A stretch of DNA of 64,000 bases from an uncultured archaeon (GTDB lineage Archaea > Thermoplasmatota > Thermoplasmata > Thermoplasmatales > Thermoplasmataceae), in contig CP009479.1 in the NCBI GenBank assembly GCA_000965745.1, positions 1,280,001-1,344,000 of the forward strand, read 5' to 3'. The notes under the pieces were generated by a model. That model had not been told where the DNA came from. It made no database searches and saw only the letters and a program-made list of their open reading frames with translations. Below, one piece after another: positions 582 to 16,537 of this stretch (its first letter is position 1; each line of letters opens with the position of its first letter). A program made the position numbers and the translations under genes.

Positions 582-604
582 GGTTGAACCGTTCTAGAAC
601 GGTA

Positions 605-1006
605 TCAAGTATTTCTCCAAGGAGCCGCAAGAAAGCCTCTTGAGTGAGCGGAGGGGAGGAATTGCGGCAAGATTAGATGTTGAGTAACAACATCAATACC
701 GTGTACAACACCCTTAAGGTAAATCTTCTCCCCGATGAGAAACAGACAGATGCACTCATTGACACTTTCGTGAAATTCAACGAAGCGTGCAATTTTGTGG
801 CCCGTCTTGCATTCGAGAGAAAGCTGTACAATATGATTCAAGGGCCTTGTCATGGTAAGACTCAATACGGTGAGAGGGAGGTGAAAGTTCCAATAACAAC
901 AGGAAAATACAGGTAACTGCCTCTTGACTATTGTAGCGGGTGCTATTTTTGATCAGTCTTTGATTCCCCAGCGACAAGCCCCATCCCTAAGGGTGGGGTA
1001 GTTGAC
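605..1006 (+). mobile_element. tnpB: Internally deleted IS200/IS605 (tnpB) element
   Basis: TnpB-like N-terminus 'YNTLKVNLLPDEKQTDALIDTFVKFNEACNFVA' from 701. Typical right end ACAAGCCCCATCCCTAAGGGTGGGGTAGTTGAC ends at 1006. Left boundary approximate. Confidence 0.75.
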
Positions 1007-1057
1007 ACAACCTATATCAGGCTGATTGGATTCTGTGATATATAATCCATAAAGGAA

Positions 1058-1669
1058 GTGCGCCGATTGGAACAAAACCTGTACCTCAAGGGGGAAGAGA
1101 AATTCGGCCGGTTGACATCCGGGCTTTATTCAAAGTTTTCAGGGGTATCCTCAAACATGGCGTACGGACTGATTAGGACGACCATAGTAAATGCCAACCC
1201 CTCGGCACTGCTGGATGTCGGTTGCGGCCCGGGCGATATTCTCGCCAGGGTGGCACTGGAAAACAGCGAAATGAAGCTCTATGGAACAGATCCTTCGCCC
1301 CATATGGTGGAAATAGCAAACAGGAGGATATCCAGGTCTGGAATGAATAACCGTGTGTCAGTGAGGCTGGGAAGCAGTAGAAACCTTCCCTTCGACAGGA
1401 AGTTTGACATGATCATCTCTTCTTTTTCATTCCATCACTGGAAGGGTCAGAAAGAAAGTCTTGAACTTCTTCTGGCAGCGCTTAACCCTTCCGGGAAGCT
1501 TGCCATGTTCGAATTGAACTCACGAAGCTTTCCGGGGAGGTTCCCGTTCGTAAAAAGTCATGCCATGTCAAAGGAATATGCCATGAGCTTCAACTTCCCT
1601 GGTTACGTTTCCAGGGTGGAATTTTCGGACAATTTCAAAATCATCTCCCTTGTTATAGAAAAGCGCTGA
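1058..1669 (+). CDS. Class I SAM-dependent methyltransferase
   Basis: Motif I 'LLDVGCGPG', 'FDMIISSFSFHHW'. Confidence 0.9.
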   Translation: MRRLEQNLYLKGEEKFGRLTSGLYSKFSGVSSNMAYGLIRTTIVNANPSALLDVGCGPGDILARVALENSEMKLYGTDPSPHMVEIANRRISRSGMNNRVSVRLGSSRNLPFDRKFDMIISSFSFHHWKGQKESLELLLAALNPSGKLAMFELNSRSFPGRFPFVKSHAMSKEYAMSFNFPGYVSRVEFSDNFKIISLVIEKR

Positions 1670-1960
1670 TCACGGATCAAACTGTTTTTGCGCTCTTTTA
1701 AACGGGAAAATGTGATTTCTAGCAATATTTTTAGAGCAAACAGTCGCGTTTTCTTTAGGTATATTGCCGCTTCGCACACATATTTCACACTGAGGATAAA
1801 GCCGGTTAGACAAATGACGAAACATCTACAGGAAAAGTATAAATATTATTTCGTAAGGGAGCTTTAAGTATATCAACCTGCCACACTATCTCACAGATGC
1901 TCTAAAAATAACTATTATTTGAATATTATCATACTCGTCATATATCGAATTCCCAACTCC

Positions 1961-1973
1961 TAAACTTTAAATA
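1961..1973 (+). promoter_or_regulatory. TATA box of the cox operon (probably leaderless)
   Basis: TTTAAATA at 1966-1973, about 24 nt before ATG 1997, with no SD. Confidence 0.55.
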
Positions 1974-1996
1974 TTGTTATCAAGTACAGACTTTCG

Positions 1997-4453
1997 ATGG
2001 ACATTCATGGAAGTGGATCTGGATATTCCAACCCCAGTGAAGCAAGGCCTGAGTCCTGGGTAAGAGACTGGCTGTTTACAACAGACCATAAGAAAATAGG
2101 AATATGGTACTTTGCCACAGCATTTTTCTTCTTTCTGCTTGCAGGCTCAATAGCTCTTATGATCAGGACTCAGCTCATCCTGCCAAACATGCATTTTCTG
2201 GATGCGGCCCAGTACAGTGAGGCCTTCAGCCTCCATGGTTTCACGATGATGTTATTCTTCCTGACTCCATGGAACTTTGCGTTTGGCAACTATTTTGTTC
2301 CGCTTCAGGTTGGAACCAAAAGGCTTGCTTTTCCGAAGCTGGAGTCTCTCGCATACTGGCTGTATCTGCTGGGAGGCATTCTCCTTTTCACTGGACTGTA
2401 CTACCCGGGAGGAGCTTTGAATCTTGGCTGGACACTGTACGCGCCGTTGAATCAAGACGTATTCTTCCCGAATGTAGGTGACACAATTGCACTGTTTGCC
2501 CTGATGATGGAGCTCGTAAGCCTGATCATTGCGGCCCTGAACTTCATAGTTACAATAGTTGGAAGAAGGGCCAAAGGAATGAGGATGGTAGAGGTGCCCC
2601 TGTTCACATGGGCCATACTGTTTGTTAGTGTGCTTCTATGGTTCTCGGCACCCGAGCTTCTGGGGCTTGACACTACGCTTATTCTTGATCGTGTATTCCA
2701 TTTCAGCACTCTGCTCTCTCCAGCAGGAGGGGCTCTGCTGTGGGAACTTGAATGGTGGTATTTCGGCCATCCCGAAGTTTACGTACTGGTCTTACCTGCT
2801 GCGGGTGCGATAGCTGATATGACCAGTACTTTTGCCAAACGGCCTGTATGGGGCAAGAAGATGGTGATAGGAGCCTTCGGGTTTGTGCTCTTCATGAGCA
2901 TACTTGTCTTCTTCCATCACATGTTTATGACCGGCATCCTCATGCCAATGCTTCAGAACGCTTCCGTCTGGACCGAGACCATCTCGATACCGGTGGGAGT
3001 TATCTGGCTGGCCATAGTGGGAACAGTTGTGGGAGGCAAGATCAACGCCAAGAACCCCGCCATGCTATTCATAATCGGGGCAGGAATCAATGTCCTTGTC
3101 GGAGGAACTTCGGGGGAGCTCCTGTCAGCCATTGGAATGGACGTCGGGGTTCACGGGACATTCTTCGTAGTTGGCCACTTCCACTATTTTGTTGTTGGCC
3201 TTGGAGTATTTGGGCTCATTGCAGCAACCTACTACTGGTTCCCAAAGATGACAGGGTTCATGCTGAACAGAAAACTGGGGGTGATTCATTTCATCATATC
3301 CTATATCGGCATCAACCTGCTTTACGGCCCGATGTTCTTCCTTTACAACATGCCCAGAAGGTGGGCATTATACCCGCCCGGGCTTGGATTTACGACACCA
3401 AACTTCATGGCCTCAATTGGAGCCTACATATTCGGAGGGGCACAGGTTATACTCCTGGTGAATATGATCTACACCCTTTACAGACAGGGGCCAAAAGCCC
3501 CGGACAACCCATGGGGCGGATACCAGCCGGAGTGGCTCACCACATCCCCGCCACCAGAACACAACTTTGACGGCCTGATGAACGTAAAGCACACAAAGGA
3601 AGCCATCAAGATTACGTTCGAGCCTCTGAAGAAGATCTACAAGCCTGAACTCTCACCATATCCACTGATTATCTCCGTGGGCGCGTTCATATTCTTCACG
3701 GGAGTTGCACTCTACGTGATGTATTATCCGCCGATAGTCTGGATGGTTGGAGCTGCCATAGTGGCATACGGATTCATAGGCTGGATGTACCAGTCTGCCA
3801 GGCTTAGAGACTACCTTGGCGAAGATGTGCATGAGAGGAACATGAAAGGGTTCTCAGGAATAAATCTGACAGACTTCGGAATGTTCGGGTTTATAACAGG
3901 ATTTGTCCTGTTCTTCAGTTCCTTCCTGGGAACAGGCGTATTCGGCTACCTGCAGACAAAGGCGTTCTCCATACTGGGCGCTTTCCCGTTTTCGAACGAC
4001 CCGCCACTTGCCTTGGGTTCAATAATGCCTCACTATCAGATGGCGGCTGCCACTATCCTGGCAATCGTTTCGACGGTGGGATTGGGAGTTGCCTATGAAG
4101 GAGCAAAGTTGAGAAAATACACGGCAATAAATTCGGGCCTCGGGGCAGCTGCTGTGATGATCATAGCTGTTGTTGTGATGTATCTTTCCAGTTTTGCCAT
4201 AATGGGAACGGACGGATACGGCTTCGCAGCAGCGCACAACAGCATGCTTCTGTCAACGTTCTATGACAACTTCATACCTCTGACCGCATTCTTTGTGGCT
4301 TCGGCAGCAGTTGCCATTTACATGATGATGAACGCTCTGAGGAAGAAGATCACGATGACTCCGAGAATAACGAGCATGAGGGCATTGCTGATCTTCAACA
4401 CCTTCACAACAGCATTTGCAGTGATCGCGTACATTGTAGTTGGGGCGCTATAA
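1997..4453 (+). CDS. coxA: Heme-copper oxidase subunit I fused to a divergent subunit III-like domain (SoxM/CoxAC-like)
   Basis: TDHKKIG, LHG, WYFGHPEVY, HHMF, GHFHY, MPRR, then DNPW..EW..SPPP.HNF and extra TM helices. Confidence 0.93.
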   Translation: MDIHGSGSGYSNPSEARPESWVRDWLFTTDHKKIGIWYFATAFFFFLLAGSIALMIRTQLILPNMHFLDAAQYSEAFSLHGFTMMLFFLTPWNFAFGNYFVPLQVGTKRLAFPKLESLAYWLYLLGGILLFTGLYYPGGALNLGWTLYAPLNQDVFFPNVGDTIALFALMMELVSLIIAALNFIVTIVGRRAKGMRMVEVPLFTWAILFVSVLLWFSAPELLGLDTTLILDRVFHFSTLLSPAGGALLWELEWWYFGHPEVYVLVLPAAGAIADMTSTFAKRPVWGKKMVIGAFGFVLFMSILVFFHHMFMTGILMPMLQNASVWTETISIPVGVIWLAIVGTVVGGKINAKNPAMLFIIGAGINVLVGGTSGELLSAIGMDVGVHGTFFVVGHFHYFVVGLGVFGLIAATYYWFPKMTGFMLNRKLGVIHFIISYIGINLLYGPMFFLYNMPRRWALYPPGLGFTTPNFMASIGAYIFGGAQVILLVNMIYTLYRQGPKAPDNPWGGYQPEWLTTSPPPEHNFDGLMNVKHTKEAIKITFEPLKKIYKPELSPYPLIISVGAFIFFTGVALYVMYYPPIVWMVGAAIVAYGFIGWMYQSARLRDYLGEDVHERNMKGFSGINLTDFGMFGFITGFVLFFSSFLGTGVFGYLQTKAFSILGAFPFSNDPPLALGSIMPHYQMAAATILAIVSTVGLGVAYEGAKLRKYTAINSGLGAAAVMIIAVVVMYLSSFAIMGTDGYGFAAAHNSMLLSTFYDNFIPLTAFFVASAAVAIYMMMNALRKKITMTPRITSMRALLIFNTFTTAFAVIAYIVVGAL

Positions 4454-4464
4454 GGAGGTGATCT

Positions 4465-4734
4465 TTGATAATGGAAAATAATGAAAATATGAAAAAGAAA
4501 ATGGAAACTCCGGTGAAGGAACCAACTACGCCGAAACCGGAGGAAAAATACTTCGAAGAGGAGGAGGAATATGAGGAGGCAAAGGAGCCTGTTGACGATC
4601 CTTACATCGAGGACGCCGGCACGACAAAAGGAGGCCCTTACTTCGCCTTCTTTGCAGCATTGATAGTCATGTCGCTGATGCTCGCTGTATGGCTCTTCTC
4701 AGCCCTGTACTTCGGGAGGTGGAACCTGATATGA
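4465..4734 (+). CDS. Small single-TM protein with acidic N-terminus (possible accessory oxidase subunit)
   Basis: GGAGGTGA SD, poly-Glu stretch, C-terminal TM, ATGA overlap with the next gene. Confidence 0.65.
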   Translation: MIMENNENMKKKMETPVKEPTTPKPEEKYFEEEEEYEEAKEPVDDPYIEDAGTTKGGPYFAFFAALIVMSLMLAVWLFSALYFGRWNLI

Positions 4735-5420
4735 ATACGAAAAGGGCAGCAATGATCGCTGGTGGGCTGTTTCTAGCAGTCTTTCTGGCGGCAGCTGATT
4801 TCACGATTGCGGTTCACCAGCCCACATGGCAGGACGTAGTCCCGGTGCAGCCGCAGCTTCAGCCACATTATCTCCCATGGTCCAACAACACTACCATGGG
4901 GACTGATAACGGGACAATAGCTATTCATATGAGTGCAGACCCTGGAACGCAGCCATACAACTTCAACGGCACATCCTGGGGGCGCCTGAACTACTATCTG
5001 CCTGCGCATGTGAACATCTGGCTCACTTTCACCAATAACATGAACATCTCGCACAGCGACCACCTGTTCAGGGCTCCTTCGTCCTGGAACGGACAGGAGC
5101 GCATACCGCAGGTTGCTGACCCCGGAGCGGCCGGATGGACTCAGATAGGTCCGGCAATTGGTTCGCTGCTGCCGACAACAGCTCAGTACAACAATGAAAC
5201 CGGACTGATTTCCAACACATCAGGGTACAATTCCCATTCAAATACAGTCTTCATCCCCGGGGAAAACCTGACCTCCGGGCTCTACCTGTTCATATGCGGA
5301 GTCCCGGGGCATGGTGAGGACGGGATGTATGCCTATGTCCACGTGAGCAACTCCATACAGAACCCTTACTATGTTGTTATCAACAAGGGCCTGACCTCGG
5401 GCCAGCTAGGAGGAAGATAG
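4731..5420 (+). CDS. soxE: Sulfocyanin/rusticyanin-like blue copper protein, membrane anchored
   Basis: Type-1 Cu motif 'CGVPGHGEDGM' (C-x4-H-x4-M), upstream His in 'ISHS', N-terminal anchor, SD GGAGGTG before ATG 4731. Confidence 0.88.
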   Translation: MNTKRAAMIAGGLFLAVFLAAADFTIAVHQPTWQDVVPVQPQLQPHYLPWSNNTTMGTDNGTIAIHMSADPGTQPYNFNGTSWGRLNYYLPAHVNIWLTFTNNMNISHSDHLFRAPSSWNGQERIPQVADPGAAGWTQIGPAIGSLLPTTAQYNNETGLISNTSGYNSHSNTVFIPGENLTSGLYLFICGVPGHGEDGMYAYVHVSNSIQNPYYVVINKGLTSGQLGGR

Positions 5421-5421
5421 G

Positions 5422-6351
5422 ATGGATGTAATAAGTATAGTTAACACGGTATTTGGATACAACCCGTCGTCCTTCACGAGGTCAAACTTCTGGTTTGACT
5501 TCATGAGGTACCTCATAATCGGGTTTGTAGTATCCGTAGGATTCGCCATATGGTTCTACATTGTGCACAGGAACGCGGCAAGAAGAAAGGAGGATCCAAA
5601 GGATGCAGTGAAGCCGGGCAGGATACCTTCGCCAAATGCAAGGACATACAAGAAAGTCTGGCTTGTATTCATCCTGCTGGTAATGCTGATGTTCTACAGC
5701 CTTATCGTTGCGTCTCTCCCGAATGATGCAAATGTCAGGACTCCGCCCGCATCCGTGCAGTCGCAGTACCAGCACAGCCTTAACGTATATGTCTACGGCC
5801 AGCAGTGGCAGTGGCAGTACTACATTCCGAAGTACCACCTGTGGTACCTCTACCAGACGAACCTTCCGGCCAACACGATAATCTACTTCCATGTCACGAG
5901 CCGGGACGTCATGCATGACTTTGCCGTCCCGGCTTTCAAGATAAAGGTGGATGCATTCCCGAGCCATTGGAATACAGTCTGGACAGAGGTGTCCACCCCG
6001 GGAACCTATATGGCCGAATGCATGGAATACTGCGGAATAGCTCATTATCTGATGAGATCGCCGCTGACAGTGATGACTTACGGAAACTTCACAACATGGG
6101 CACAGAACCATGCAGGCCAGAAACTGATCGGAGCCTACGGGCCATACGTTCAGGAGTCTGGCCTTCAGCCGCACACACTTCAGCACAACAACCAGGCACT
6201 TGCAAACCAGACAGCGGGCCTCCTTGGTTCGAAGAATGTAAACAGCCAGAGCAACAACACGTTCAGCGTACTTACAAAGAACCTGAACAAAGACACGCAT
6301 ACGGTAATGAGGCACATAATGGAGGACGGGTCCAGGCTATTCGAACTCTAA
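5422..6351 (+). CDS. coxB: Cytochrome c oxidase subunit II (CuA)
   Basis: Two TM helices, 'GQQWQWQY', 'SRDVMHDF', CuA 'CMEYCGIAHYLM'. Confidence 0.93.
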   Translation: MDVISIVNTVFGYNPSSFTRSNFWFDFMRYLIIGFVVSVGFAIWFYIVHRNAARRKEDPKDAVKPGRIPSPNARTYKKVWLVFILLVMLMFYSLIVASLPNDANVRTPPASVQSQYQHSLNVYVYGQQWQWQYYIPKYHLWYLYQTNLPANTIIYFHVTSRDVMHDFAVPAFKIKVDAFPSHWNTVWTEVSTPGTYMAECMEYCGIAHYLMRSPLTVMTYGNFTTWAQNHAGQKLIGAYGPYVQESGLQPHTLQHNNQALANQTAGLLGSKNVNSQSNNTFSVLTKNLNKDTHTVMRHIMEDGSRLFEL

Positions 6352-6388
6352 AATGACCGTCTCAGAAATTAACTATTTTTATTTTTTT

Positions 6389-7690
6389 GGTTCTTCCTAG
6401 TTTTGTGTGGGCTCATGGATAAAGCTCCAGATTTCCGCATTTGAAATATATTGCTGTCTTGAGATGGCCTCTGTTCCTGAATCCATACGCCATCTTCTCT
6501 ATCAGCGCGATCTTTGAATTGATTCCCTCTGCCTTTGCGTTTGTTATCCTGTGGATGAAATAGTTCAGTATCTTGTCGATGTGCATTCGCATCATCTTCG
6601 CCACCTTCTTCATTGCATCAATCGAGGAGTGCACGATCCAGGAGTGCCATCTCTTCCAGTAATCCATTGCATCCTCCATTGAGGGGAGATTCCACAGGTT
6701 CCTTATGTTCTCCTTCATGGAGTACGCCTTGCCCGTCCTTAGATCTGAATTCCTTAGCTCATTGTACCGCTCCCTGTACCTTTCGGGAAGGCGATCGCCG
6801 GAATAGAGCCATATGTACCTTGATCCTTTGAGGTCCATGATACCCTTCTTCACCAGTTCACGATTCTCCTCCTTCCTCACCGCATCAACCGCTTCATTCA
6901 CATGGCGCATGACATGAAACCTGTCGAAGACGATCTTTGAATGAGCCTGTGGTACATGCTCAAGCGTGGATGATATGTACGGATCCCACATGTCCATTGA
7001 TACCGCATCTATGCGAGATAATTCATCATCACTCATCGTTTTGTAATACTCATCGAGTGATGATTTCCTCCTGTCCATGGAGATGAACTCAACACCGCTG
7101 TTCTCCATGTCCATCACCAGCGTGATGTACTTGTGCCCCTTCCTGTACGATTTGTCATCAACGCCTATGATCCTTGGCCTTGATGTTTTCCTTGACAGTC
7201 CTCTCTTAACCGCATGATCGATGATGTTCCATGCCCGGCTCCAGGAAATGTCCATTACCCGGGTGAAATTCTCAACATCCATGTTCTGGAGCATCCTTAT
7301 GGATCTTGATTCGAATCTGAGAGTGAACCTTGATCTCTTCTCGGAGAGGGGCATGACCGCCTCTCTTATGCCATGCTCCGGACACTGTATCCTTGGTGAT
7401 CTGGCATGAATGAATGTCTTGAACCCTATGCTGTCAAGATCCCTCCAGACCCTTTCCCTCAGATGATCGTAGACCATGCACTCCCTCCTGCACTCGGGAC
7501 ATGGGAGCTTAGCTCCCCTGTCGTGTGCTATGAAGACTTCAACAACCTTGTCATTTGAATCAAGTGAAACACTCTCAACCCTCCAGGGGTTCTTGAGCCC
7601 TAAGAGCTCGGAGTACAACTGTTCAGCATCCTGCATGGCAAATATAATGAAAAGAAGGATAAAAATACCCACACATTTCTAGGATGAACC
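6389..7690 (-). mobile_element. Complete ISL3-family insertion sequence
   Basis: 23-bp imperfect terminal IRs (GGTTCTTCCTAGTTTTGTGTGGG / GGTTCATCCTAGAAATGTGTGGG). 8-bp TSD ATTTTTTT at 6381-6388 and 7691-7698. Confidence 0.92.
6413..7636 (-). CDS. ISL3-family transposase
   Basis: Zn finger CPEC...CPEH, 'IGVDD', 'SMDMW', 'FDRFH', 'TNAKAEGINSKI', 'AYGFRN'. Confidence 0.93.
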   Translation of the reverse strand: MQDAEQLYSELLGLKNPWRVESVSLDSNDKVVEVFIAHDRGAKLPCPECRRECMVYDHLRERVWRDLDSIGFKTFIHARSPRIQCPEHGIREAVMPLSEKRSRFTLRFESRSIRMLQNMDVENFTRVMDISWSRAWNIIDHAVKRGLSRKTSRPRIIGVDDKSYRKGHKYITLVMDMENSGVEFISMDRRKSSLDEYYKTMSDDELSRIDAVSMDMWDPYISSTLEHVPQAHSKIVFDRFHVMRHVNEAVDAVRKEENRELVKKGIMDLKGSRYIWLYSGDRLPERYRERYNELRNSDLRTGKAYSMKENIRNLWNLPSMEDAMDYWKRWHSWIVHSSIDAMKKVAKMMRMHIDKILNYFIHRITNAKAEGINSKIALIEKMAYGFRNRGHLKTAIYFKCGNLELYP

Positions 7691-7703
7691 ATTTTTTTGA
7701 AAG

Positions 7704-9455
7704 GTGATAAGAATCTTCAGTGAACAGCCCAACAGCAGAAGCTACCCGATGCGAAGCAACGCTTCAGGGAAACAGGGACTGAAATTTGTAGCCGTCGGCA
7801 TACTGTTCTCACTCGCGCTCATGTCATACTGGTACTTTGTCCAGGACGGCGTGGCGTTCATGCAGCCAGGAAAGGTTGAAAGGCTGATGATTCTCTTCTA
7901 CATTATTTTGTCATCTTCTATTTTCATGGTCGTCCACGGCTTGAGAAAATTCTACCGCCAATATATTGAAGAAACGGCTGAAGTCCAGAAAATCGTCAGG
8001 TTTCTCACAGTATTGTACAGCATATTCTATCTCTATTTCTCCGGGATCGTAGCGTGGCAGCCGAAAATTGACTTCACAAGAGTATACGGGGTCACACACG
8101 CAACTATTATCGGCTTCCCGGCGTCCGGTTCATTCGGCCAATATCCCTCTGTAAACATTTTCGCCCCTCCATCCTGGCATCTGGGGGCGGAGGTGCTTCC
8201 CCTTGATCTCATTCTGATGTCGGTGATTATTCCCATGGTGGCGCTCAATTTCGGGATAATCCTGACAACACTGCGCAGGCACAGGCGCATGAGCAACGCA
8301 CCACTAAACAGCACAGGTGTCGCCGCAACCATATTCACTTCGTGTCCCACCTGCGCGGTGAGTGCGATAGCTTTTGGTGTCAGTGGCATAGGGGCCGCCT
8401 CATGGTATGCAACGCTCGCGTCATACCAGTACCTCTTTGTGGCCATAGTTGTCCCCCTGCTTCTGGCTCTGCCCTTCATCAATGAACCAGCATTGAAAGG
8501 TGTATGTAAAATGACTAGTTTAAGTGATAAAGGTGTTAAAAGACCGTTTCTGTCACCTGGTTATGAAGATAAGAAAATCAGGAGCGGCGTTTCAGCAAAG
8601 GATTATATCAGCCTGATGAAGCCGGGTATATCATTCCTGCTCATAGTGGAGGCTGTATCATCCTATCTAATAGCAGATTCTCTTGCAGTGGGGATTGTGA
8701 CCCTGCTGTCGCTGATAGCTGCGGGCTTCCTCTCTTCTGGAGGGTCAGCTGCCATCAATAACTTTCTGGAGAAAGACAGGGATTCCCGGATGGAAAGAAC
8801 ATCTCGGAGGCCGGTCGCATCAGAAAGGATCTCACCAGGGAAGGCTCTGGTATTCGGCATTCTGTCCATATCATTTTCCCTGGCTATTTCCGCGATATTG
8901 ATCAACCTGTTTACAGCAGTTATGATCTCCTTTGGGGCAATCTCATACATATTCCTCTACACTCTGTTTCTCAAACCCAGGACCGAGATGAACATCGTAA
9001 TTGGAGGGATAGCGGGAGTCTTTCCAGCCCTGGCGGGTTGGTCAGCGGCAACAGGGTCTATCGGACCACTCGCATTTCTCATAGGGGCAATAGTTTTTCT
9101 CTGGACTCCACCACACTTCTGGGGGCTCGCGACAAAATACAGGGATGACTACAGGCTTGCAGGTTATCCTATGCTCCCAGTGAGCAGGGACATAAAAGGA
9201 ACCGTGAGGGCAATAACAATCTGGTCTGTTCCGATGCTTGTTGCGCCATTTGTTCCACTGATAATTCCCCAGATAGGCACTCTTGGCATTATGTATTATG
9301 GGGCTGCAGCAGTGGTTACAGCCATATTTGTCAAGATCGATGTGGACATGCTCAGGGAGCCGACGGAGAAGAACGCTTTCAGGGCGTTTACCTTTTCCAT
9401 ACCGTACCTGTTTGTGATACTCCTGGCAATGATCGCGGGAACAATCACACTTTAG
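7704..9455 (+). CDS. ctaB: Heme o synthase (protoheme IX farnesyltransferase) with an N-terminal ~270-aa membrane domain carrying CPTC
   Basis: 'NNFLEKDRDSRMERTSRRP', 'YTLFLKP', 'NIVIGGIAG', 'LWTPPHFW', 'YRDDY'. Exact start uncertain. Confidence 0.9.
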   Translation: MIRIFSEQPNSRSYPMRSNASGKQGLKFVAVGILFSLALMSYWYFVQDGVAFMQPGKVERLMILFYIILSSSIFMVVHGLRKFYRQYIEETAEVQKIVRFLTVLYSIFYLYFSGIVAWQPKIDFTRVYGVTHATIIGFPASGSFGQYPSVNIFAPPSWHLGAEVLPLDLILMSVIIPMVALNFGIILTTLRRHRRMSNAPLNSTGVAATIFTSCPTCAVSAIAFGVSGIGAASWYATLASYQYLFVAIVVPLLLALPFINEPALKGVCKMTSLSDKGVKRPFLSPGYEDKKIRSGVSAKDYISLMKPGISFLLIVEAVSSYLIADSLAVGIVTLLSLIAAGFLSSGGSAAINNFLEKDRDSRMERTSRRPVASERISPGKALVFGILSISFSLAISAILINLFTAVMISFGAISYIFLYTLFLKPRTEMNIVIGGIAGVFPALAGWSAATGSIGPLAFLIGAIVFLWTPPHFWGLATKYRDDYRLAGYPMLPVSRDIKGTVRAITIWSVPMLVAPFVPLIIPQIGTLGIMYYGAAAVVTAIFVKIDVDMLREPTEKNAFRAFTFSIPYLFVILLAMIAGTITL

Positions 9456-9464
9456 TGATCTGAA

Positions 9465-10250
9465 ATGTTAGTGTATTCACTTTCCATTGCAGAAGCAATA
9501 TTCGCGGGCTCCATCATAGTCATAGGAGGGATGGTTGAGGGAACCGGAAAAGGCCTCTCTCTGGGTACAAAATGGCCTTATACCAGGAACATGCCGGGGC
9601 TTGCACTGAAGCTGGATTCAGAGGTCTGGCACAGAGTCGTTGCCACTATTCTGGGATTGAATGCGGTGGCAATACTGATACTTGGAAGGGGGGAACTTGA
9701 GATAGTGGGATTTCTCCTTGTTGCAGCTACGGCCCTCCTTGGGCTTGGGACCCTGTACACACAGGCAGGAAAAGCCCCGTCACTTATTCAGGGGACTCAT
9801 GACATTCTTGCTTACCTGACCCTGTTGACATATCTCCTGCTTGCTGTAAGCGACCCTGTCAACTTCGGCTCATTCCTCCTGCATGCCATCCCGCTTCATT
9901 CATTCCTTCTGGTCGCATTCATGGGGGGTGTAACTGCAGGCCAGAGAGGTTTTGGAAAAGCAATAGGGCAGTTTGTGGTTCCGAAGACATTTGCACAATG
10001 GGCATGGGTTGTTCATATGCTTTCTGTCCTGATCTTTATCCTGACGCTGGCGTATTTCTTCCCGAACTATGACGTGGCCTTTATCCTGACACTTGTCCAG
10101 ATGGGGGTTGGTCTTTTTTCATACCAGTCGGTCAACAAAAACCCAAAGAGGCCTGGAATGCTCATACCGACACATCAGCTTTTCTCTGTGCTGATAGTGG
10201 TATCTATATTCTTCGGCTTGTCTATAAACGTACCATTTCTTATGAAATAA
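9465..10250 (+). CDS. ctaA: Heme a synthase (CtaA/Cox15), cysteine-less type
   Basis: 'GGMVEGTGKGLSLGTKWP', 'EVWHR', further TM His residues, directly downstream of ctaB. Confidence 0.75.
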   Translation: MLVYSLSIAEAIFAGSIIVIGGMVEGTGKGLSLGTKWPYTRNMPGLALKLDSEVWHRVVATILGLNAVAILILGRGELEIVGFLLVAATALLGLGTLYTQAGKAPSLIQGTHDILAYLTLLTYLLLAVSDPVNFGSFLLHAIPLHSFLLVAFMGGVTAGQRGFGKAIGQFVVPKTFAQWAWVVHMLSVLIFILTLAYFFPNYDVAFILTLVQMGVGLFSYQSVNKNPKRPGMLIPTHQLFSVLIVVSIFFGLSINVPFLMK

Positions 10251-10341
10251 ATCAATCTTTAATTAATATTAATTTACCTAAATTATATCTTCCTGTTTTT
10301 ACCTTCATCTTCTCCCTTTTTGGGAAATAGTTAAGTAAATT

Positions 10342-10539
10342 ATGGCCATGGTTAGGTATATGAATAAACTGATGGTGGTCGCAGGTTTCGCGCTTATCGC
10401 CTTTGGGGTATTCTACATGCCATTCTCCAGATTTGCAGCCTGGGACCTTTACCTGGAGGCCGCCGCCTCTATGATCTTTATAGCAGGCGCACTTTTTTTC
10501 GAGAAAGATGAAGACTTCATAGATGAGGATGAAGAGTAA
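10342..10539 (+). CDS. Small two-TM hypothetical protein
   Basis: 65-aa ORF with two hydrophobic segments and an acidic tail. Confidence 0.55.
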   Translation: MAMVRYMNKLMVVAGFALIAFGVFYMPFSRFAAWDLYLEAAASMIFIAGALFFEKDEDFIDEDEE

Positions 10540-10735
10540 TCCCGGATGGGGCAAAATGCAAGACGTTACATTATCTTTTAATACTATTACATAGATGAAA
10601 ATTTTAAAAGTGATGCTACAATTACGACATAAAATATTGGGTTTGCAACTGAGCAACCCACAGGAAAGTAGATAAGCTCAGATATGGTATAATCCAATAT
10701 GTTCAACGGGCATCGAGCCCTATGGAGACTTTAGA

Positions 10736-12217
10736 ATGGCCGCAAGAAACATCCTGGCAGGAGGAATATCATCTTTCTTCATACTCCTGTATATGGTGGT
10801 AGTGCTTAACGTCGGTTATGTCTACATCGATCAGTTTGCACGCCAGGAAGTCATCATGGCATTCATCGTTGCCATGGCTCTCCCTGTACTTGCAATGATC
10901 CCGTCCAGAAGGCTTGGGAAGGCTCAATTTTACCTGGAGCTTGTAGTGCTCCTGTACACATACGGAATGGCAATGCTGGCGATACAGAAGCCCGTTCTTC
11001 TGTTCATCGCATTGGTCCCGTTTATAATCAACCTGCTTCTCTTCCAGTCAAGGTTTCTCACGACGGGCAGGCAGAAGTACAAAGCGGTCACATTTGTTGC
11101 ACTCCTCGTTTTTATGTACTTCGTATCAAGCGTTATCAAGGTTGAAATTCCCGGTGTCAGGGGATACGAATTTGCCATTGCCCTTTATGACGACAACATC
11201 TCGCCACAGGGAATACAGTTCATAATGACAGGGGCCATAACCCTTTTCACAAAGCTGTTTGTAATCGATCTGAGTGTCGGGGATTTTCTCCTTTTCATCA
11301 CCATATCTGCAATTCTCACTGAAAACTACAGCATGATATTCACTTATCTGAAGAGCAGGAACAAGGGAATGGTGAACACCACGCTTTCAGGCGCGGTGAC
11401 TGCACTCAGCTGCCAGTGTGAAAGCCTTGCCGCGGCCTTTCCAACAGTGATAGTGCTCCTCCTGTCCGTGATAATAGTGCCACTCATGGTTGAAACTGTC
11501 GGCAGCATCATACTTACGTCATTCCTTCTCTCGAGGCTGTATCTTAGAGGGAGAGGCTGGGGATTCGTACACCGCGTGGAAGAATGGTCAAGGGGAAACG
11601 GATTTCTCAAGGTGATGATCCTCCCTTACCTTGTCGTGCCGCTGTTCGAGACGTTTGGGATCTTCCTGGGTTTTCTGAACATATTCATGTTCTTTGCCGG
11701 AATAAATTTCCTGATGTTCTTCACAGGTATTTCAATCCCGGTTGTAATCAAAAGAGTTGTGGGGTTCAGGGGATTCAGCAGCCGTCTGCCCCTGATAGGC
11801 CTTACCGCTCTTTCCGCTTTTCTAATGTACGTATGGTTCTTGCCTTCTCTGACCCTTGTTGCATACACTTCTCCCGCCTATTTTGCAGTGATGAACCTCT
11901 CCGCTGTCGCCTCTGGATTTCTTTCGGGTGTTGCATATGCATCCACCCGCAGCCATGAAAACAGGAGGCTTCTGCTCGAGTTCATCACGATGATGGAGAG
12001 CATGTTTGCAATAATTGTGTTCTATATTTCTGTGGTAGGCAGGTATACAATATGGCCCGAGTTCGGCCTTCTCCAGGCCACCGAATTTGCAATTGCAATG
12101 TTTGGAGTGACTCTCCCATTCATGTGGATGAGCACCCACATGACCCTATCGGATTATGCTGTTGATGATACTCCCACGAAGGTTAGAAGTGGAAGAAACG
12201 ACGCCGTAAAGGCCTGA
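10736..12217 (+). CDS. Polytopic membrane protein with SCQC motif
   Basis: 493-aa ORF, many TM segments, 'TALSCQCES'. Confidence 0.8.
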   Translation: MAARNILAGGISSFFILLYMVVVLNVGYVYIDQFARQEVIMAFIVAMALPVLAMIPSRRLGKAQFYLELVVLLYTYGMAMLAIQKPVLLFIALVPFIINLLLFQSRFLTTGRQKYKAVTFVALLVFMYFVSSVIKVEIPGVRGYEFAIALYDDNISPQGIQFIMTGAITLFTKLFVIDLSVGDFLLFITISAILTENYSMIFTYLKSRNKGMVNTTLSGAVTALSCQCESLAAAFPTVIVLLLSVIIVPLMVETVGSIILTSFLLSRLYLRGRGWGFVHRVEEWSRGNGFLKVMILPYLVVPLFETFGIFLGFLNIFMFFAGINFLMFFTGISIPVVIKRVVGFRGFSSRLPLIGLTALSAFLMYVWFLPSLTLVAYTSPAYFAVMNLSAVASGFLSGVAYASTRSHENRRLLLEFITMMESMFAIIVFYISVVGRYTIWPEFGLLQATEFAIAMFGVTLPFMWMSTHMTLSDYAVDDTPTKVRSGRNDAVKA

Positions 12218-12233
12218 CATTGGTGGCAGGCTT

Positions 12234-12893
12234 TTATGTCGGGCCCATAAGGTATGAGATTATATTGACATACCATGGTACAATGGGGAGCGCCATAAGC
12301 AACAGGCTGAGATGAATCGACATGGAAATGTAAACACTTTTCCTCAGGTAATATACAACTCCGTAGATCAACCCGATCGACATCATCGAGAATATGAAGA
12401 TAACGGACAGGAATACGTTCGGCCACGTCCCCTGGTAGAAAAGTTCGTAATATGCATACCAGATCCCGAAAAGGATGCCCTGTATTATTACCGCTTTCTC
12501 CCTGCTGAGCGCGTTCCCCAAATATTCTATCAGTACAAACCTGAAATTCACTTCTTCAAGCAGCACAGGGGCATAGAGTGCAAAAAGGACCTGCTCCCTG
12601 CCGAAGCCGTAGAAGGCATACAGAAAGAACCAGAATGAAATTGTGCCTACGAGCACGAGAAAGTCAGTGGAAATGAACGCTCTTCTAGCTGACTCTGCCA
12701 ATCTGTGGTCGAGAAGTATCATGGCTGATAGAACTGCTGGCATACCTATCAAGTAGAGCAAGTACGTGTCGTAGCTGACAACAATGGTGAACAGGTAGTA
12801 TATCGCAAATATTATGGCCTCAAGGAATATGAACAGGACCGGCCCAATGTTTCTAGATCCCGCCGTCTCACGTGCATTTTCAAATGATACCAT
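12234..12893 (-). CDS. CPBP (Abi/Rce1) intramembrane glutamic protease
   Basis: 'LLEEVNFR' EExxxR motif and distal 'SIHL'. Confidence 0.8.
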   Translation of the reverse strand: MVSFENARETAGSRNIGPVLFIFLEAIIFAIYYLFTIVVSYDTYLLYLIGMPAVLSAMILLDHRLAESARRAFISTDFLVLVGTISFWFFLYAFYGFGREQVLFALYAPVLLEEVNFRFVLIEYLGNALSREKAVIIQGILFGIWYAYYELFYQGTWPNVFLSVIFIFSMMSIGLIYGVVYYLRKSVYISMSIHLSLLLMALPIVPWYVNIISYLMGPT

Positions 12894-12916
12894 CCTATTC
12901 CGGCCTCCCCTTTGAT

Positions 12917-14989
12917 TCAGTCCTTTGGATTTGCATCACCCCTATTCCTGTCCTTTCTGATTTCAGTGACATAATCCCTGACATCATAGAAGTAGATGTT
13001 ATCGTACGGGCATGCCTGGAGGCATGACCCGGACCCCACGCATTTTGAGCTCTTGAAGTACCCCTGTTTTATGAACTGTGAAGCAAGGTCGCCCAGACCA
13101 ACCTCACAGTTCGTCACACAATCCTTAGTGGGGCATGTGACGCATGTCTGTGGACTCCTGACCTTGAGCTTGAACAGCCCTATCCTGCTGAAGAAACCCA
13201 CGAACGTGCCCGTGGAACACCACCCATAACGCCTGCACGGGCTCATTCCGACGAAGGGGATGGAAACGAAGAATATGTACCAGAGGAAGTTCCATATGAA
13301 CAGGGTGTAAAAAACAGTGGTGTCAATGCCGTATATGGTCAATCCTGAAGTGCCAGTAACAGAATAATATGAAATAACAGAGAACAGTATCGCAATGATC
13401 CATGAATTGTATGCTACCGTGAGCACAGAATCCTTGTACCTGCTTCCAATGTGTTTCCTGCTGAACTTGGACTCATAATTGTACGATATCATGCTCTGCC
13501 CGAGAGTGCCCCCGTACATCACTGCAGAAGGGCACAATGTGCTGCAGTAGCTTCTCCTCCCGAAAAGGAGCGCCAGGACCGCGAATATCACGTAGCTGAA
13601 TACTATGCCTATGGCAAATGCGGGATAGAAGGCCCCAAGCTCACCAACATTGGGCCAGAACGGAAGAGCGTATGCCGACTTCCCGAAAAGAGAGGTCCAC
13701 CATTCGCTCTGGAACCACACAGTCCATATCCAGAAGGCAGACAGTGCGAGGGCGAGATTCCAGCGTTTCCCTTTCCATTGGGTGCTGCGCATCCTGAAGA
13801 CAACCAGAAAACTCATTTCCAGACCCATTATGGTCCAGAACCAGGGGCTGTCAGTAACTATTCCTATCAGGTATAGTGAGTCCAGAACCGATGATGCAGG
13901 GTTGAAAGCTGATACGCCGGAAAGCATATTTGAGAAAGCCGTGAAGTCAGTCATGCCGCCGCCGAAATTTATCGCAGGGACAATGGAGTACGGTGTACCG
14001 GCATTTTGAACCATTAAGGCTGCGGAAATGAACCACTCGGAAACAAACGATGCCAGTAAAACGGTAAAAAGGAAAAGCGGGTTCCTGATCCACCCGGTTC
14101 TTGACTTTTTATGGACGTCTGCCTCAACAGGCCTGATTACGCTGTTGAAGTAGACCCCCATCGTGACGGACATCCCTCCTGCATAGAACAGCCAAGCGAT
14201 AAGGAAAGGACTCCGGAACACAGTACCAAAGAAAATTCCGAATGACATGAATGCGAAGGAAATGAACAGCCATCTCAACTGGTTCTTATCTTCCGGCTTC
14301 ATCGTGTTCCTGCTGTGTGAGATGCGCTCGAAAAGAAGTACCATGAACAGAATCATCGCTGCTGTAGTCAGCAAAGTCCCCATTCGCAAAAACCCATAAT
14401 TTCCGAGGATAGTCGGCGAGAACAGAGCCATGCTGAGAAGGGAAAGCAGAATATACAGATGAAGCCCCCTGGCTTTTGTTAACAGGAGCACAATTACCAT
14501 TTCGGCGGACATTGGGGCAACAAACAGGTATGAGTTCACGCCAGCACTGAACATGTAGAGGATGTATGATGCCCCCCCTAAAACACCAGGAAGTGCTGAA
14601 ATTCCTCCAGAACCAAATCCGAGTGAATAAGCGAGTACTCCAAGCGAGACTTCATTCCAGACAATCATCCCCACGATGAGCCTTGTCACGGAAGCCGTCA
14701 GCCCGGTAAACGGCCTTCCAATGGCGAAATAGATGAGGTAAAGGATTGTGCCCCCCATTATGAACATGACGTAAACCATTGCAAGGAACAGATTTGCAAA
14801 GGAGGGGCCCATGTCAACGTAGAAGGATATGGCGTTGAACATGCTAGCCATCATTGTCAGGACAATAAACACAATGGCACCATGTTTAAGCGTAAAATCA
14901 TACCGGTTCCTGAGTATGAGCAGCAGCAGGTAAGTTAGGACTATCGGCATCCCGGCTTCTATCAGAAGTATAAGCCCAAGGTATCGCAA
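12917..14989 (-). CDS. Large polytopic membrane protein with C-terminal 4Fe-4S domain (NapH/CcoG/FoxG-like)
   Basis: 'GRRSYCSTLCP', 'CRRYGWCS', 'CVTCPTKDCVTNC', 'CVGSGSCLQACP'. Confidence 0.82.
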   Translation of the reverse strand: MRYLGLILLIEAGMPIVLTYLLLLILRNRYDFTLKHGAIVFIVLTMMASMFNAISFYVDMGPSFANLFLAMVYVMFIMGGTILYLIYFAIGRPFTGLTASVTRLIVGMIVWNEVSLGVLAYSLGFGSGGISALPGVLGGASYILYMFSAGVNSYLFVAPMSAEMVIVLLLTKARGLHLYILLSLLSMALFSPTILGNYGFLRMGTLLTTAAMILFMVLLFERISHSRNTMKPEDKNQLRWLFISFAFMSFGIFFGTVFRSPFLIAWLFYAGGMSVTMGVYFNSVIRPVEADVHKKSRTGWIRNPLFLFTVLLASFVSEWFISAALMVQNAGTPYSIVPAINFGGGMTDFTAFSNMLSGVSAFNPASSVLDSLYLIGIVTDSPWFWTIMGLEMSFLVVFRMRSTQWKGKRWNLALALSAFWIWTVWFQSEWWTSLFGKSAYALPFWPNVGELGAFYPAFAIGIVFSYVIFAVLALLFGRRSYCSTLCPSAVMYGGTLGQSMISYNYESKFSRKHIGSRYKDSVLTVAYNSWIIAILFSVISYYSVTGTSGLTIYGIDTTVFYTLFIWNFLWYIFFVSIPFVGMSPCRRYGWCSTGTFVGFFSRIGLFKLKVRSPQTCVTCPTKDCVTNCEVGLGDLASQFIKQGYFKSSKCVGSGSCLQACPYDNIYFYDVRDYVTEIRKDRNRGDANPKD

Positions 14990-15270
14990 TACAGATCACA
15001 CGATTCCCGAATTTAGTATTAAAATATAACTATTACCGATACAGTTCAAAATATCTAGGTGGCACTCAGGTTTTCGTATTCTAAAGGCATGTTTTTGGAA
15101 TGAGTTCAGTATATAACCAGTCATAGGCTGCTGCCAGGTTAAATTACAATATATGATAGTATTATAACTTAACTGTTATTATAAAATAAGCAAATCCTCA
15201 TAGAATAATGTTAAATATCTATCATGATTTTTGGAAACATAACACATAATAACATAATAAACTGATTGAA

Positions 15271-15729
15271 ATGCTTAAACGGAGAGAATGGGACAGGACC
15301 GTTATAAAGGTAATCTTTGTCATGGTCAGGGTACTTCTTCTCGTTGCAATAGTTATCGAGATCTATTTCACGGGGCAGCTCCTTTATCAGAAGATACCTG
15401 AGGGGGCTTCAGCAGTGACCCAGGATCTGGCAAACCTTGTGTCTGGAAGCCTGCTCGCACTCGCCATCATGGACATCTATCTTTCCGTTGGGGTCTATTC
15501 AAGGGGCGACATAAAGAACCTGGTGTACATCATCGACGCTGCGGTCTTCTTCGTGGTAAGGGACATCGTCATTCAACTTTTCAACGGTGAAAGCATTCCT
15601 CAGTATAACGTATACATTTACAGGGTGGGAATTCTCGGGGCAGTGGTTCTCGCACTGGTTGCAGCACGATTTGTGGCAATCCTGTCTTCTGAAAAGGCAA
15701 TGCAGGTTAACAGGGATGAACTTTCGTAG
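15271..15729 (+). CDS. PsiE-like (phosphate-starvation-inducible) membrane protein
   Basis: Four TM segments, 'YIIDAAVFFVVRDIV'. Confidence 0.65.
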   Translation: MLKRREWDRTVIKVIFVMVRVLLLVAIVIEIYFTGQLLYQKIPEGASAVTQDLANLVSGSLLALAIMDIYLSVGVYSRGDIKNLVYIIDAAVFFVVRDIVIQLFNGESIPQYNVYIYRVGILGAVVLALVAARFVAILSSEKAMQVNRDELS

Positions 15730-15748
15730 CTTACCTTCAGCATCGTTC

Positions 15749-16537
15749 TCATCTCCAGTGTCCCTTTCCAATAAAAAAAGCTATGACAAAAACAACGACA
15801 CCGGATATTACCACCAAGGGTCCTGCCGGAACGCCTGAAAAGTATGAAATAACGACTCCAATCACCGCGCTGAACCCGCCGAAAAATGCACTGAAAAGGG
15901 CATAATTCCTCAGATTTCTGCTTATGTTCCTCGCAGCAGCCGCAGGCACTATTACGACCGCTCCCACGAGAATAGTCCCAACCTCCTTTATGCCGATTGC
16001 CACAACCGTCGCTACAAGGATAAGGTAGATGAGATTTATTCTCTCCACTTTCACACCCATCGAGAGGGCCATTTCCTTTGAAATCATGGACATGGCCATA
16101 TCTCTGTAGATCAACCTGGTTACGAGCACGGTGAAAAATGCTATAACGCCTGTAATGGCAGTATCCAGGGGTGTAATCGTACTGATATCACCGAAAAGGG
16201 CATGCAGAAGCTCCGTCTCAGGGGTTATCAGCAGTCCCACCGCGAGTGCCAGGACGAACAGCACGCCTATGATGGTTTCAATAGGAAGGACTGTGGACTT
16301 TTGGAGGTACCAGGTAGCAATCATAACTGCTACAAGAAAGCTGAATGCTCCAATAAACGGGTTGAAATTCAGAAGCAGGCCTATGGCAAGACCAGGGAGG
16401 GCAACATGCGACAGGGCATCTCCAACGAGGGCCATTCTTTTTGAGATCATGATGGATCCAAGGTACCCTGCGGTAGGGCCTACGAAAATACCGACGATGA
16501 TAGGCAGAAGCAATGCGTATTGCAAGGTGTCAGTCAC
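15749..16537 (-). CDS. znuB: Zn/Mn ABC transporter permease
   Basis: 'MALVGDALSHVALPG', 'LFGDI', 'PAAAA'. Confidence 0.9.
   Translation of the reverse strand: MTDTLQYALLLPIIVGIFVGPTAGYLGSIMISKRMALVGDALSHVALPGLAIGLLLNFNPFIGAFSFLVAVMIATWYLQKSTVLPIETIIGVLFVLALAVGLLITPETELLHALFGDISTITPLDTAITGVIAFFTVLVTRLIYRDMAMSMISKEMALSMGVKVERINLIYLILVATVVAIGIKEVGTILVGAVVIVPAAAARNISRNLRNYALFSAFFGGFSAVIGVVISYFSGVPAGPLVVISGVVVFVIAFFIGKGHWR

Follow-up and report, generated by a model that had tools for sequence, protein, structure and literature searches.

We report the analysis of a respiratory gene cluster, here called cluster A, at positions 1997-14989 of a 64,000-nucleotide stretch of DNA (the window) from an uncultured archaeon of the Thermoplasmatales (GenBank assembly GCA_000965745.1, contig CP009479.1, positions 1,280,001 to 1,344,000). 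The genome is complete (2.23 Mb) and belongs to a family-level group with few close relatives. Cluster A combines the genes of a heme-copper oxidase (HCO), a sulfocyanin and two heme-synthesis enzymes with those of three further membrane proteins: a 493-amino-acid (aa) protein, a CPBP-type protease homolog and a membrane polyferredoxin (polyFd). For archaea of acid mines and bioleaching operations, a sulfocyanin-oxidase cluster is widely taken as a genomic marker of iron oxidation, and a preliminary description of the window had proposed that cluster A is an iron-oxidation island, a fox-like module with its own assembly system. Cluster A represents a divergent form of the sulfocyanin-oxidase cluster already known from Thermoplasmatales. 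Its novelty lies in a bridge of remote homology from its accessory proteins to FoxF and FoxJ of the Sulfolobales fox cluster, which suggests, at the level of sequence comparison, a case for an archaeal copper-biogenesis module.

Gene content of cluster A

All genes named in the preliminary description were recovered by ORF (open reading frame) listing and by Pfam and NCBIfam scans (Table 1). Its statement that no cytochrome c, Sco or CtaG gene is recognizable also stands: none of the cluster proteins contains a CxxCH motif, and the profiles for CtaA (PF02628), Caa3_CtaG (PF09678) and Sco (PF02630) returned nothing above cut-off in the whole genome. Coupling is tight among the first four genes of the cluster: an ATGA overlap occurs at 4731-4734, and each start is preceded by a Shine-Dalgarno sequence. 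The probable start of the sulfocyanin gene is position 4731, where its ATG overlaps the stop codon of the 89-aa gene in this ATGA.

Table 1. Features of cluster A, with positions in the window (TM, transmembrane)
Feature	Position	Strand	Family or basis
COX1-domain protein with long membrane tail, 818 aa, no Cys	1997-4453	+	PF00115
Acidic protein with one C-terminal TM helix, 89 aa, candidate small oxidase subunit	4465-4734	+	no family match
Membrane-anchored sulfocyanin (type-1 copper)	4689-5420, likely start 4731	+	PF06525, TIGR03094
CoxII, CuA subunit II, with 80-aa Q/N/S-rich C-terminal tail	5422-6351	+	PF00116, TIGR02866
ISL3-family insertion sequence, 1304 bp	6388-7691	-	transposase 6413-7672; PF01610, PF14690, PF13542
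CtaB-fusion protein, 583 aa	7704-9455	+	residues 299-583 = heme O synthase
N-terminal membrane domain of CtaB fusion, invariant SCPTC motif	7704-8573	+	no family match
Heme O synthase (CtaB/CyoE) domain	8574-9455	+	TIGR01473, PF01040
Cys-less heme A synthase (CtaA/COX15 fold), 261 aa	9465-10250	+	motifs, structural match
Polytopic membrane protein, 493 aa, only two Cys, both in SCQCE	10736-12217	+	FoxF N-half homolog
CPBP (Rce1-like) intramembrane protease homolog	12234-12893	-	PF02517
Membrane polyferredoxin (polyFd), 690 aa, NapH-like	12917-14989	-	TIGR02163 below cut-off

The 818-aa protein covers the full COX1 profile (PF00115, E 1.8e-106, residues 33-478, profile positions 1-436 of 436) and scores 465 bits against TIGR02891, under the equivalog cut-off. 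Its C-terminal third contributes about 300 aa of additional TM helices that are subunit-III-like by length; the Pfam scan detected PF00115 and no COX3 domain (PF00510) in this protein, and relatives of like length carry PF00510. Copies of this subunit I+III fusion within the genus are 85-93% identical, and the next relatives reach only ~40-41%; at 35-39% identity to the Ferroplasma protein, the fusion is no closer to Ferroplasma than to the fusions of Desulfurococcales or Nitrososphaerales. Proteins of 1034-1041 aa are also among its nearest relatives (~40%; P0298), and in one of them COX1 is joined to a SoxE sulfocyanin domain, which puts donor and oxidase on a single polypeptide. Neither Pfam nor NCBIfam matched the 89-aa protein, which is conserved in the genus only (54-70% identity); an ORF has been reported at the corresponding position in Ferroplasma and Acidiplasma (PMC12524180). 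The sulfocyanin assignment (PF06525 SoxE, E 1.1e-18; TIGR03094, E 1.4e-22) is accompanied by an intact type-1 copper site of the form C-x4-H-x4-M, with ligand loop CGVPGHGEDGM, and the protein is 26-29% identical to the sulfocyanins of Ferroplasmaceae and Picrophilus. CoxII (PF00116, E 1.7e-15; TIGR02866, E 1.2e-34) carries the complete binuclear CuA motif CMEYCGIAHYLM. On these motifs, the product of the cluster is predicted to be a cupredoxin-fed A-type oxidase whose type-1 copper donor is encoded in the same operon.

The heme O synthase domain of the CtaB fusion scores 277 bits against TIGR01473 (cut-off 210) and matches PF01040 with E 3e-51. Its fusion to a membrane domain bearing the CPTC motif was found in this genus only (P0002, L013). 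The N-terminal domain has no match in Pfam or NCBIfam and locally resembles the 493-aa family around its Cys motif; aligned with residues 370-566 of FoxF, the C-terminal half that carries a CPMC motif, it yields an hhalign probability of 39% (E 3e-4), a resemblance that we regard as tentative.

The 261-aa protein is assigned to CtaA, and its preliminary identification as a Cys-less form is borne out by conserved His residues, a CtaA-like motif devoid of Cys and a structural match. It has eight TM helices and the E-x-x-H-R motif of CtaA/COX15, and four His residues are invariant among ten family sequences: H56 (in EVWHR), H112, H184 and H237. The family motif GGxVEGxGxGLSLGTxWPY mirrors GGxVRxTGxGLxCPDWPLC of CtaA with the Cys replaced, and an Atlas model (pLDDT 0.88) aligns with a TM-score of 0.77-0.79 to clusters of which 97-100% is PF02628. 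The PF02628 profile itself matched the protein neither in the Pfam scan nor in the genome-wide search, a comparison of the family with CtaA-CtaB fusions by hhalign gave E 5e-4 and a probability of 31%, and the CtaA-like profile found no match among PDB sequences. The CtaA-like gene occurs only beside I+III-fusion oxidases, its product is annotated as COX15 in Acidiplasma (PMC12524180), and it is the sole heme A synthase candidate in the genome.

Accessory membrane proteins

The family of the 493-aa protein has five invariant residues in 26 sequences (N197, C226, Q227, C228 and E229), and a profile (HMM) search of 1.84 billion proteins with it recovered no more than 68 representative clusters. 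We put this protein forward, from its conserved residues and its gene neighbors, as a candidate Cu(I) chaperone or insertase. The CPBP homolog exceeds the PF02517 cut-off (42.5 versus 22.4 bits), retains the EExxxR motif as LLEEVNFR and has, in Thermoplasmatales, a conserved place as the last gene of B-type oxidase operons.

Three parts can be distinguished in polyFd: a Met/Glu-rich N-terminal domain resembling FoxJ (residues ~1-300), further TM helices and a C-terminal domain of the NapH/CcoG type, which matches TIGR02163 over residues 466-666 (E 3e-9; 36.8 bits against a cut-off of 213). The C-terminal domain contains a CX3CP motif, in the form CSTLCP, and two 4Fe-4S motifs, CVTCPTKDCVTNC and CVGSGSCLQACP; the second CX3CP is replaced by CRRYGWC. 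Met and Glu residues are invariant in the protein, and neither conserved His pairs nor CxxCH motifs were found in the 493-aa and polyFd families. A basic loop precedes both the CQCE motif of the 493-aa protein and the CPTC motif of the CtaB fusion, and on this basis the two motifs are placed in the membrane's outer half; the Fe-S domain of polyFd is itself basic and hence presumably cytoplasmic, as in CcoG.

AF2 models of the 493-aa protein and polyFd (pLDDT 85 and 74, respectively) gave no convincing solved fold in Foldseek and VIA-align searches, which returned generic helical bundles only (best Z 8.2 for the 493-aa protein and 8.7 for polyFd). Chains of oxidase subunit III aligned to polyFd residues ~135-290 with Z 6.6-7.2, within the noise of helical bundles.

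Several relatives of these proteins occur in other settings. Many Thermoplasmatales, and also Sulfolobales archaeon HS-7, have a second polyferredoxin subfamily, not present in the genome under study, whose gene forms a pair with a separate FoxJ-like gene of ~300 aa (e.g. G001:C24:24764-27594 and L082:9638-12292). In Metallosphaera yellowstonensis, a second copy of the polyFd N-terminus is fused in frame to a fragment of a Mutator-family transposase (L069:6725-7858), ~2 kb upstream of the intact gene, and looks like a duplication and insertion scar. A family of atypical membrane-anchored cupredoxins, with the pattern HTFT ... C-x3-C-G ... M ... M and no Pfam match, was found at genome positions 1619507-1620184 and 686396-687484, at L132:7069-7785 and at ~7820-8540 of L044 and L064. 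Its genes lie directly upstream of the 493-like and polyFd genes in Thermoplasma and of 493 paralog 3 in the genome under study, and a tandem pair of them heads a Rieske/cytochrome b operon; these proteins may be c1-like acceptors of the bc complex.

Relation to the Sulfolobales fox genes

The fox genes used for comparison were those of Acidianus copahuensis, where foxB-C-D-E-F were identified in locus L079 by their lengths from the published fox table (PMC5461723 Table S3), together with the fox clusters located in M. yellowstonensis and in a third Sulfolobales genome. Profile-profile comparison by hhalign aligned the 493-aa family with residues 8-352 of FoxF over 330 columns (97% probability, E 8.6e-11), superposing the SCxCE motifs of the two; the profile-versus-sequence search of the 1.84 billion proteins did not reach FoxF at E <= 0.001, so that profile-profile comparison alone establishes the match. 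An Atlas structural search with the 493-aa protein independently found a 613-aa protein of Thermoproteota, over residues 101-399 and at a TM-score of only 0.39. FoxE, which is DUF1404 in Pfam, weakly matches the C-terminal third of the 493-aa profile (21-24 bits); its assignment to Caa3_CtaG was considered and rejected on the basis of this Pfam family.

The profile of the polyFd N-terminal domain matches FoxJ of three species with 70-84 bits (E 1e-21 to 4.5e-26), and the motifs MMxTM, NEVxM and PMMxEM occupy matching positions in both. FoxG of M. yellowstonensis matches the Fe-S part of polyFd only (25 bits, E 5e-8 in a small database). Full-length polyFd orthologs, separate from FoxG, also occur in Sulfolobales at 30-35% identity, and in A. 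copahuensis and genome G056 the ortholog comes right after foxF and an AAA ATPase gene. A polyFd homolog next to COX1 in M. yellowstonensis (L069) had the look of FoxG next to FoxA, but this was rejected: ~127 kb separate it from the fox cluster, and it represents a distinct paralog. FoxC and FoxD of A. copahuensis had no tblastn match at E <= 0.01 in the whole genome under study.

The idea of a fox-like module thus survives in part: remote homology to FoxF and FoxJ and the full-length polyFd orthologs beside fox genes in Acidianus are in its favor, and the missing FoxC and FoxD, with a FoxG likeness confined to the Fe-S part, speak against the iron-oxidation reading. According to a recent review, fox homologs are not known in Ferroplasma (PMC13741234); on the profile matches above, this appears to need revision as far as the accessory genes are concerned. 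Remote homology ties four unexplained fox genes to proteins found in all aerobic Thermoplasmatales, and this link suggests a role for them in oxidase biogenesis rather than in iron chemistry.

Distribution in Thermoplasmatales and the iron-oxidation question

An alignment search with polyFd yielded 79 named loci, which were annotated with the window proteins and show three patterns. In most Thermoplasmatales (dozens of loci), polyFd is accompanied by a divergent run of coxII-coxI(B-type)-cupredoxin-ctaB-493-like-CPBP; this pattern includes I-plasma and the cultured Oxyplasma meridianum M1 (L017), for which its authors list the gene run and report no growth on Fe(II) or pyrite (PMC11349054). 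Ferroplasmaceae and Picrophilus have ctaB-coxII-sulfocyanin-coxI+III and, further on, 493-like, polyFd and CtaA-like genes, and Picrophilus (L131; and G022, assigned through a protein with 100% identity to an entry named for Picrophilus oshimae/torridus) carries the full set together. In Thermoplasma (with G130 assigned to T. volcanium by a 100% match), an atypical CuA-like cupredoxin gene is followed by a pair of 493-like and polyFd genes, with a Rieske/cytochrome b operon nearby, and no COX1 was found in five Thermoplasma genomes; 493 paralog 3 of the genome under study likewise directly follows an atypical CuA-like cupredoxin. The polyFd gene of a T. acidophilum-like genome is split in two by a stop codon (G134:C1:1298664-1300579), which may reflect decay after loss of the heme-copper oxidase; the T. 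volcanium copy is intact.

Across 121 genomes of the order, polyFd is present in 67 of the 69 that are COX1-positive, counts that are not phylogenetically independent; families without COX1 have no polyFd, and five of the seven genomes with polyFd only are Thermoplasma. Throughout Thermoplasmatales, the partnership of the flanking membrane genes with oxidase and cupredoxin genes is conserved.

These distributions do not bear out an iron-oxidation island. The full set is present in Picrophilus, and P. torridus does not oxidize Fe(II) (PMC12524180), which is one of the findings that the preliminary description had itself named as refuting its proposal; the accessory genes surround a B-type oxidase in organotrophs such as O. 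meridianum and are kept in Thermoplasma, which is devoid of the oxidase; and FoxC and FoxD were not found. In Acidiplasma, the cluster is expressed more highly on sulfur than on Fe(II) (PMC12524180). The gene set does not predict the Fe(II)-oxidizing phenotype, and nothing in the cluster is Fe(II)-specific. That a non-iron-oxidizer owns the same kit shows once more that the marker is unreliable.

Genomic setting

A second oxidase cluster, of the B-type, lies ~71 kb downstream of cluster A and consists of a second polyferredoxin gene (polyFd2) followed divergently by coxII-coxI-cupredoxin-ctaB-CPBP. PolyFd2 is 60% identical to the cluster A copy, and the CPBP paralog at the end of this second oxidase operon 34%. 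The 493-aa protein has two paralogs in the genome, and two Rieske/cytochrome b operons are located outside cluster A, one of them being that headed by the tandem atypical cupredoxin.

Genome G001, from the same genus, is devoid of a ~17-kb stretch (window 198-17228, compared with L137) between conserved flanks. The missing stretch comprises a helix-turn-helix gene, a methyltransferase gene, cluster A, a PsiE-like gene and an ABC-3 transporter; G003 (L013) is devoid of the ABC genes only. The absence in G001 indicates that the segment is variable within the genus, and sulfocyanin respiratory clusters of Ferroplasma, Picrophilus and Cuniculiplasma have been reported on genomic islands (PMC5473848).

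Overlooked in the preliminary description was the ISL3 element between coxII and the ctaB fusion, which is bounded by 24-nt inverted repeats (6388-6411 and 7668-7691) and inserted ~20 bp upstream of the ctaB-fusion start. Four copies exist in the genome, three of them 100% identical, and we regard the element as active. It is absent at the matching site in two genomes of the same genus (L135 and L013), so the insertion is recent. It may cut ctaB and ctaA off from the oxidase promoter, leaving the only heme A synthase candidate without its promoter.

The 485-bp gap between ctaA and the 493-aa gene contains an antisense ORF of 134 aa (10252-10656, minus strand) with no family match and ~40% similarity in same-genus genomes, compared with 79-87% identity for the neighboring genes. 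It was rejected as a gene and treated as non-coding; the gap is probably the promoter region of the 493-aa gene.

Proposed function and alternative explanations

The reading that we favor, with a probability of roughly 0.6, is that cluster A constitutes a complete and self-sufficient set of operons for a cupredoxin-dependent A-type oxidase of the SoxM/Ferroplasma type, devoted to ordinary aerobic respiration, in which the 493-aa protein, polyFd and CPBP stand in for Sco, CtaG and PCuAC. Electrons would pass from quinol to either of the two Rieske/cytochrome b complexes, whose genes lie outside cluster A, and onward via sulfocyanin and CuA to the heme a/a3-CuB center of the I+III fusion and finally to O2, a path that we infer from the SoxM and Ferroplasma models. 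By family assignment, the CtaB domain makes heme O and the Cys-less CtaA heme A. In polyFd, the cytoplasmic NapH/CcoG-type Fe-S domain would reduce Cu(II), and the Met/Glu-rich FoxJ-like helices would handle the resulting Cu(I); the Cys pairs of CQCE in the 493-aa protein and of the CtaB-fused CPTC, situated in the membrane's outer half, would bind Cu(I) and deliver it to CuB, CuA and type-1 sites, and CPBP might process or mature one exported subunit. The preliminary notion of an own assembly system would then hold in a narrower sense, as a self-contained oxidase cluster equipped with its own genes for heme synthesis and, probably, for copper assembly.

The three accessory proteins would thus form a lineage-specific module that accompanies the cupredoxin-type copper proteins of acidophilic archaea and supplies their copper. 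This role is suggested by several features: no known copper chaperone is present and the constant neighbors are copper proteins; conservation falls on Cys pairs and Met/Glu clusters, not on heme or quinone ligands; one Cys-motif domain is fused to the biogenesis enzyme CtaB; each oxidase has its own copy of polyFd and CPBP; and the predicted topology sets CQCE and CPTC in the outer half of the membrane, with the Fe-S domain presumably in the cytoplasm. Other considerations weigh against the proposal. Copper binding, cupric reduction and protease action of the accessory proteins are all roles that we infer, and the models match no solved structure, so that the fold gives no functional support. 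Thermoplasma keeps the 493-like and polyFd genes with no heme-copper oxidase, which indicates that the module is not oxidase-specific, and the genome counts given above are not independent of phylogeny. NapH-type proteins can also be electron-transfer subunits. Ferroplasma acidiphilum oxidizes Fe(II) with the same kind of complex, which makes an Fe(II) role for sulfocyanin conceivable here as well.

Ferroplasma-type iron oxidation, in which surface sulfocyanin would take electrons from Fe(II) and pass them to the aa3-type oxidase, draws on a core gene content (I+III fusion, subunit II and sulfocyanin) equal to that of the F. acidiphilum Fe(II)-oxidizing complex (PMC13741234, PMC10654088), on the rusticyanin-like C-x4-H-x4-M loop, and on an acidophilic lineage in which the segment varies within the genus, like the respiratory islands of PMC5473848. 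The gene set is shared by Picrophilus, a non-Fe(II)-oxidizer, however, Fe(II) does not induce the cluster in Acidiplasma (PMC12524180), and at 26-39% identity to the Ferroplasma proteins, with no close relatives, the function is not transferable by orthology. Since tblastn found no FoxC or FoxD in this genome either, and an ordinary organotrophic supply of electrons is available from the two Rieske/cytochrome b operons, we consider iron oxidation an unlikely function. We think equally little of a direct redox role for polyFd and the 493-aa protein, by which a NapH/NosR-like Fe-S protein would connect the quinone pool or cytoplasmic carriers with extracytoplasmic cupredoxins, as an alternative input or an 'uphill' output. 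The NapH-family similarity of the C-terminal domain accords with such a role, as does the constant proximity of polyFd to cupredoxin-type genes even where there is no oxidase (in Thermoplasma and near a Rieske/cytochrome b operon). The TM helices, however, conserve Met, Glu and Cys pairs instead of heme- or quinone-type His or other redox ligands, a Cys-motif domain is fused to heme O synthase, which is a biogenesis enzyme, the quinol:cupredoxin role is already filled by the Rieske/cytochrome b complex, and each oxidase has its own copy, like dedicated assembly factors.

Improbable to a somewhat greater degree is a thiol-disulfide relay following the logic of DsbD/CcdA or Sco/TlpA, in which the Fe-S domain would reduce membrane Cys pairs (CX3CP, CQC and CPTC) and so keep the ligand Cys of CuA and type-1 sites reduced in oxidizing, Fe(III)-rich acid, with copper arriving by another route. 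All three proteins do have invariant Cys pairs within or beside TM helices, the presumed targets (CuA, sulfocyanin and the atypical CxxxC cupredoxin) all use Cys ligands, and no Sco or TlpA-like gene scored above cut-off. Such a relay nevertheless leaves the invariant Met/Glu motifs of the FoxJ-like domain unexplained and CuB, which has no Cys ligand, still devoid of an insertion factor, and Pfam and NCBIfam revealed no similarity to DsbD or CcdA.

Copper supply for an ordinary respiratory oxidase remains the reading that we prefer, and a broader version of it can be put forward tentatively, at somewhat less than even odds: the CxC proteins of the 493/FoxF type, the polyferredoxins with a FoxJ domain and CPBP may make up an unrecognized copper-centre biogenesis system of acidophilic archaea (Thermoplasmatales, Sulfolobales and acid-soil Nitrososphaerales) that replaces Sco, PCuAC, Cox11 and CtaG and metallates CuA, CuB and blue-copper sites at pH ~1. 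If this is true, foxE, foxF, foxJ and perhaps foxG would be assembly genes for oxidases and cupredoxins and not part of an Fe(II) electron path. How oxidases and cupredoxins are loaded with copper in archaea devoid of Sco, Cox11 and CtaG is a question for which the trio of 493-aa protein, polyFd and CPBP offers concrete candidates.

Comparison with known systems

The proposed role of the accessory proteins is comparable to that of Sco, PCuAC, Cox11 and Bacillus CtaG, since Cu(I) would be delivered to CuA and CuB from the outer face via Cys (or Met/His) residues; the comparison is one of function only, there being no sequence or detectable fold relation. CcoG, NapH and NosR-NosH are closer in architecture: polyFd is likewise polytopic, has CX3CP and two 4Fe-4S motifs on a basic domain, and would serve an extracytoplasmic copper enzyme. 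In the assembly of cbb3 oxidases, CcoG acts as a cupric reductase. FoxG has been likened to it (PMC5461723 Table S3). PolyFd differs from CcoG and NapH in an extra N-terminal region of 450 aa with Met/Glu motifs, and its scores are far below the family cut-offs.

The SoxM supercomplex of Sulfolobus acidocaldarius (SoxEFGHIM), a non-iron-oxidizing aerobe, combines an I+III fusion and a CuA subunit II with a sulfocyanin placed between Rieske/cytochrome b and the oxidase. This carrier arrangement is also stated in PMC12524180. In contrast to SoxM, cluster A has its Rieske/cytochrome b genes elsewhere, shows low sequence identity and is accompanied by accessory genes that are not described for SoxM. 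With the Sulfolobales fox cluster (foxA-J) it shares the combination of an HCO with unexplained membrane proteins, but the domains are distributed in another way, FoxF resembling the 493-aa protein plus the CtaB N-terminal domain, and polyFd resembling FoxJ plus a NapH-like domain. The cluster A oxidase is an A-type I+III fusion fed by sulfocyanin and not FoxAB, and no counterpart was found in this genome for FoxC/FoxD, the CbsA-like cytochrome b proposed as the Fe(II) oxidant of the fox cluster.

The closest counterparts are the Ferroplasma-type clusters. The oxidase and sulfocyanin of cluster A are only 26-39% identical to theirs and the gene order differs; cluster A is without internal Rieske/cytochrome b genes and adds CPBP, the unique CPTC-CtaB fusion and the interruption by an insertion sequence. 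Like these clusters, it resides on a variable genomic segment (PMC5473848), and the cluster of F. acidiphilum, Acidiplasma and P. torridus (CyoE-coxB-soxE-coxAC ... hypothetical-Fd-COX15; PMC12524180 Fig. 4) has the same parts list, the two having in common the I+III fusion, the small ORF, sulfocyanin, the CuA subunit II, heme O synthase, the Cys-less COX15/CtaA, polyferredoxin and a 'hypothetical' protein like the 493-aa one.

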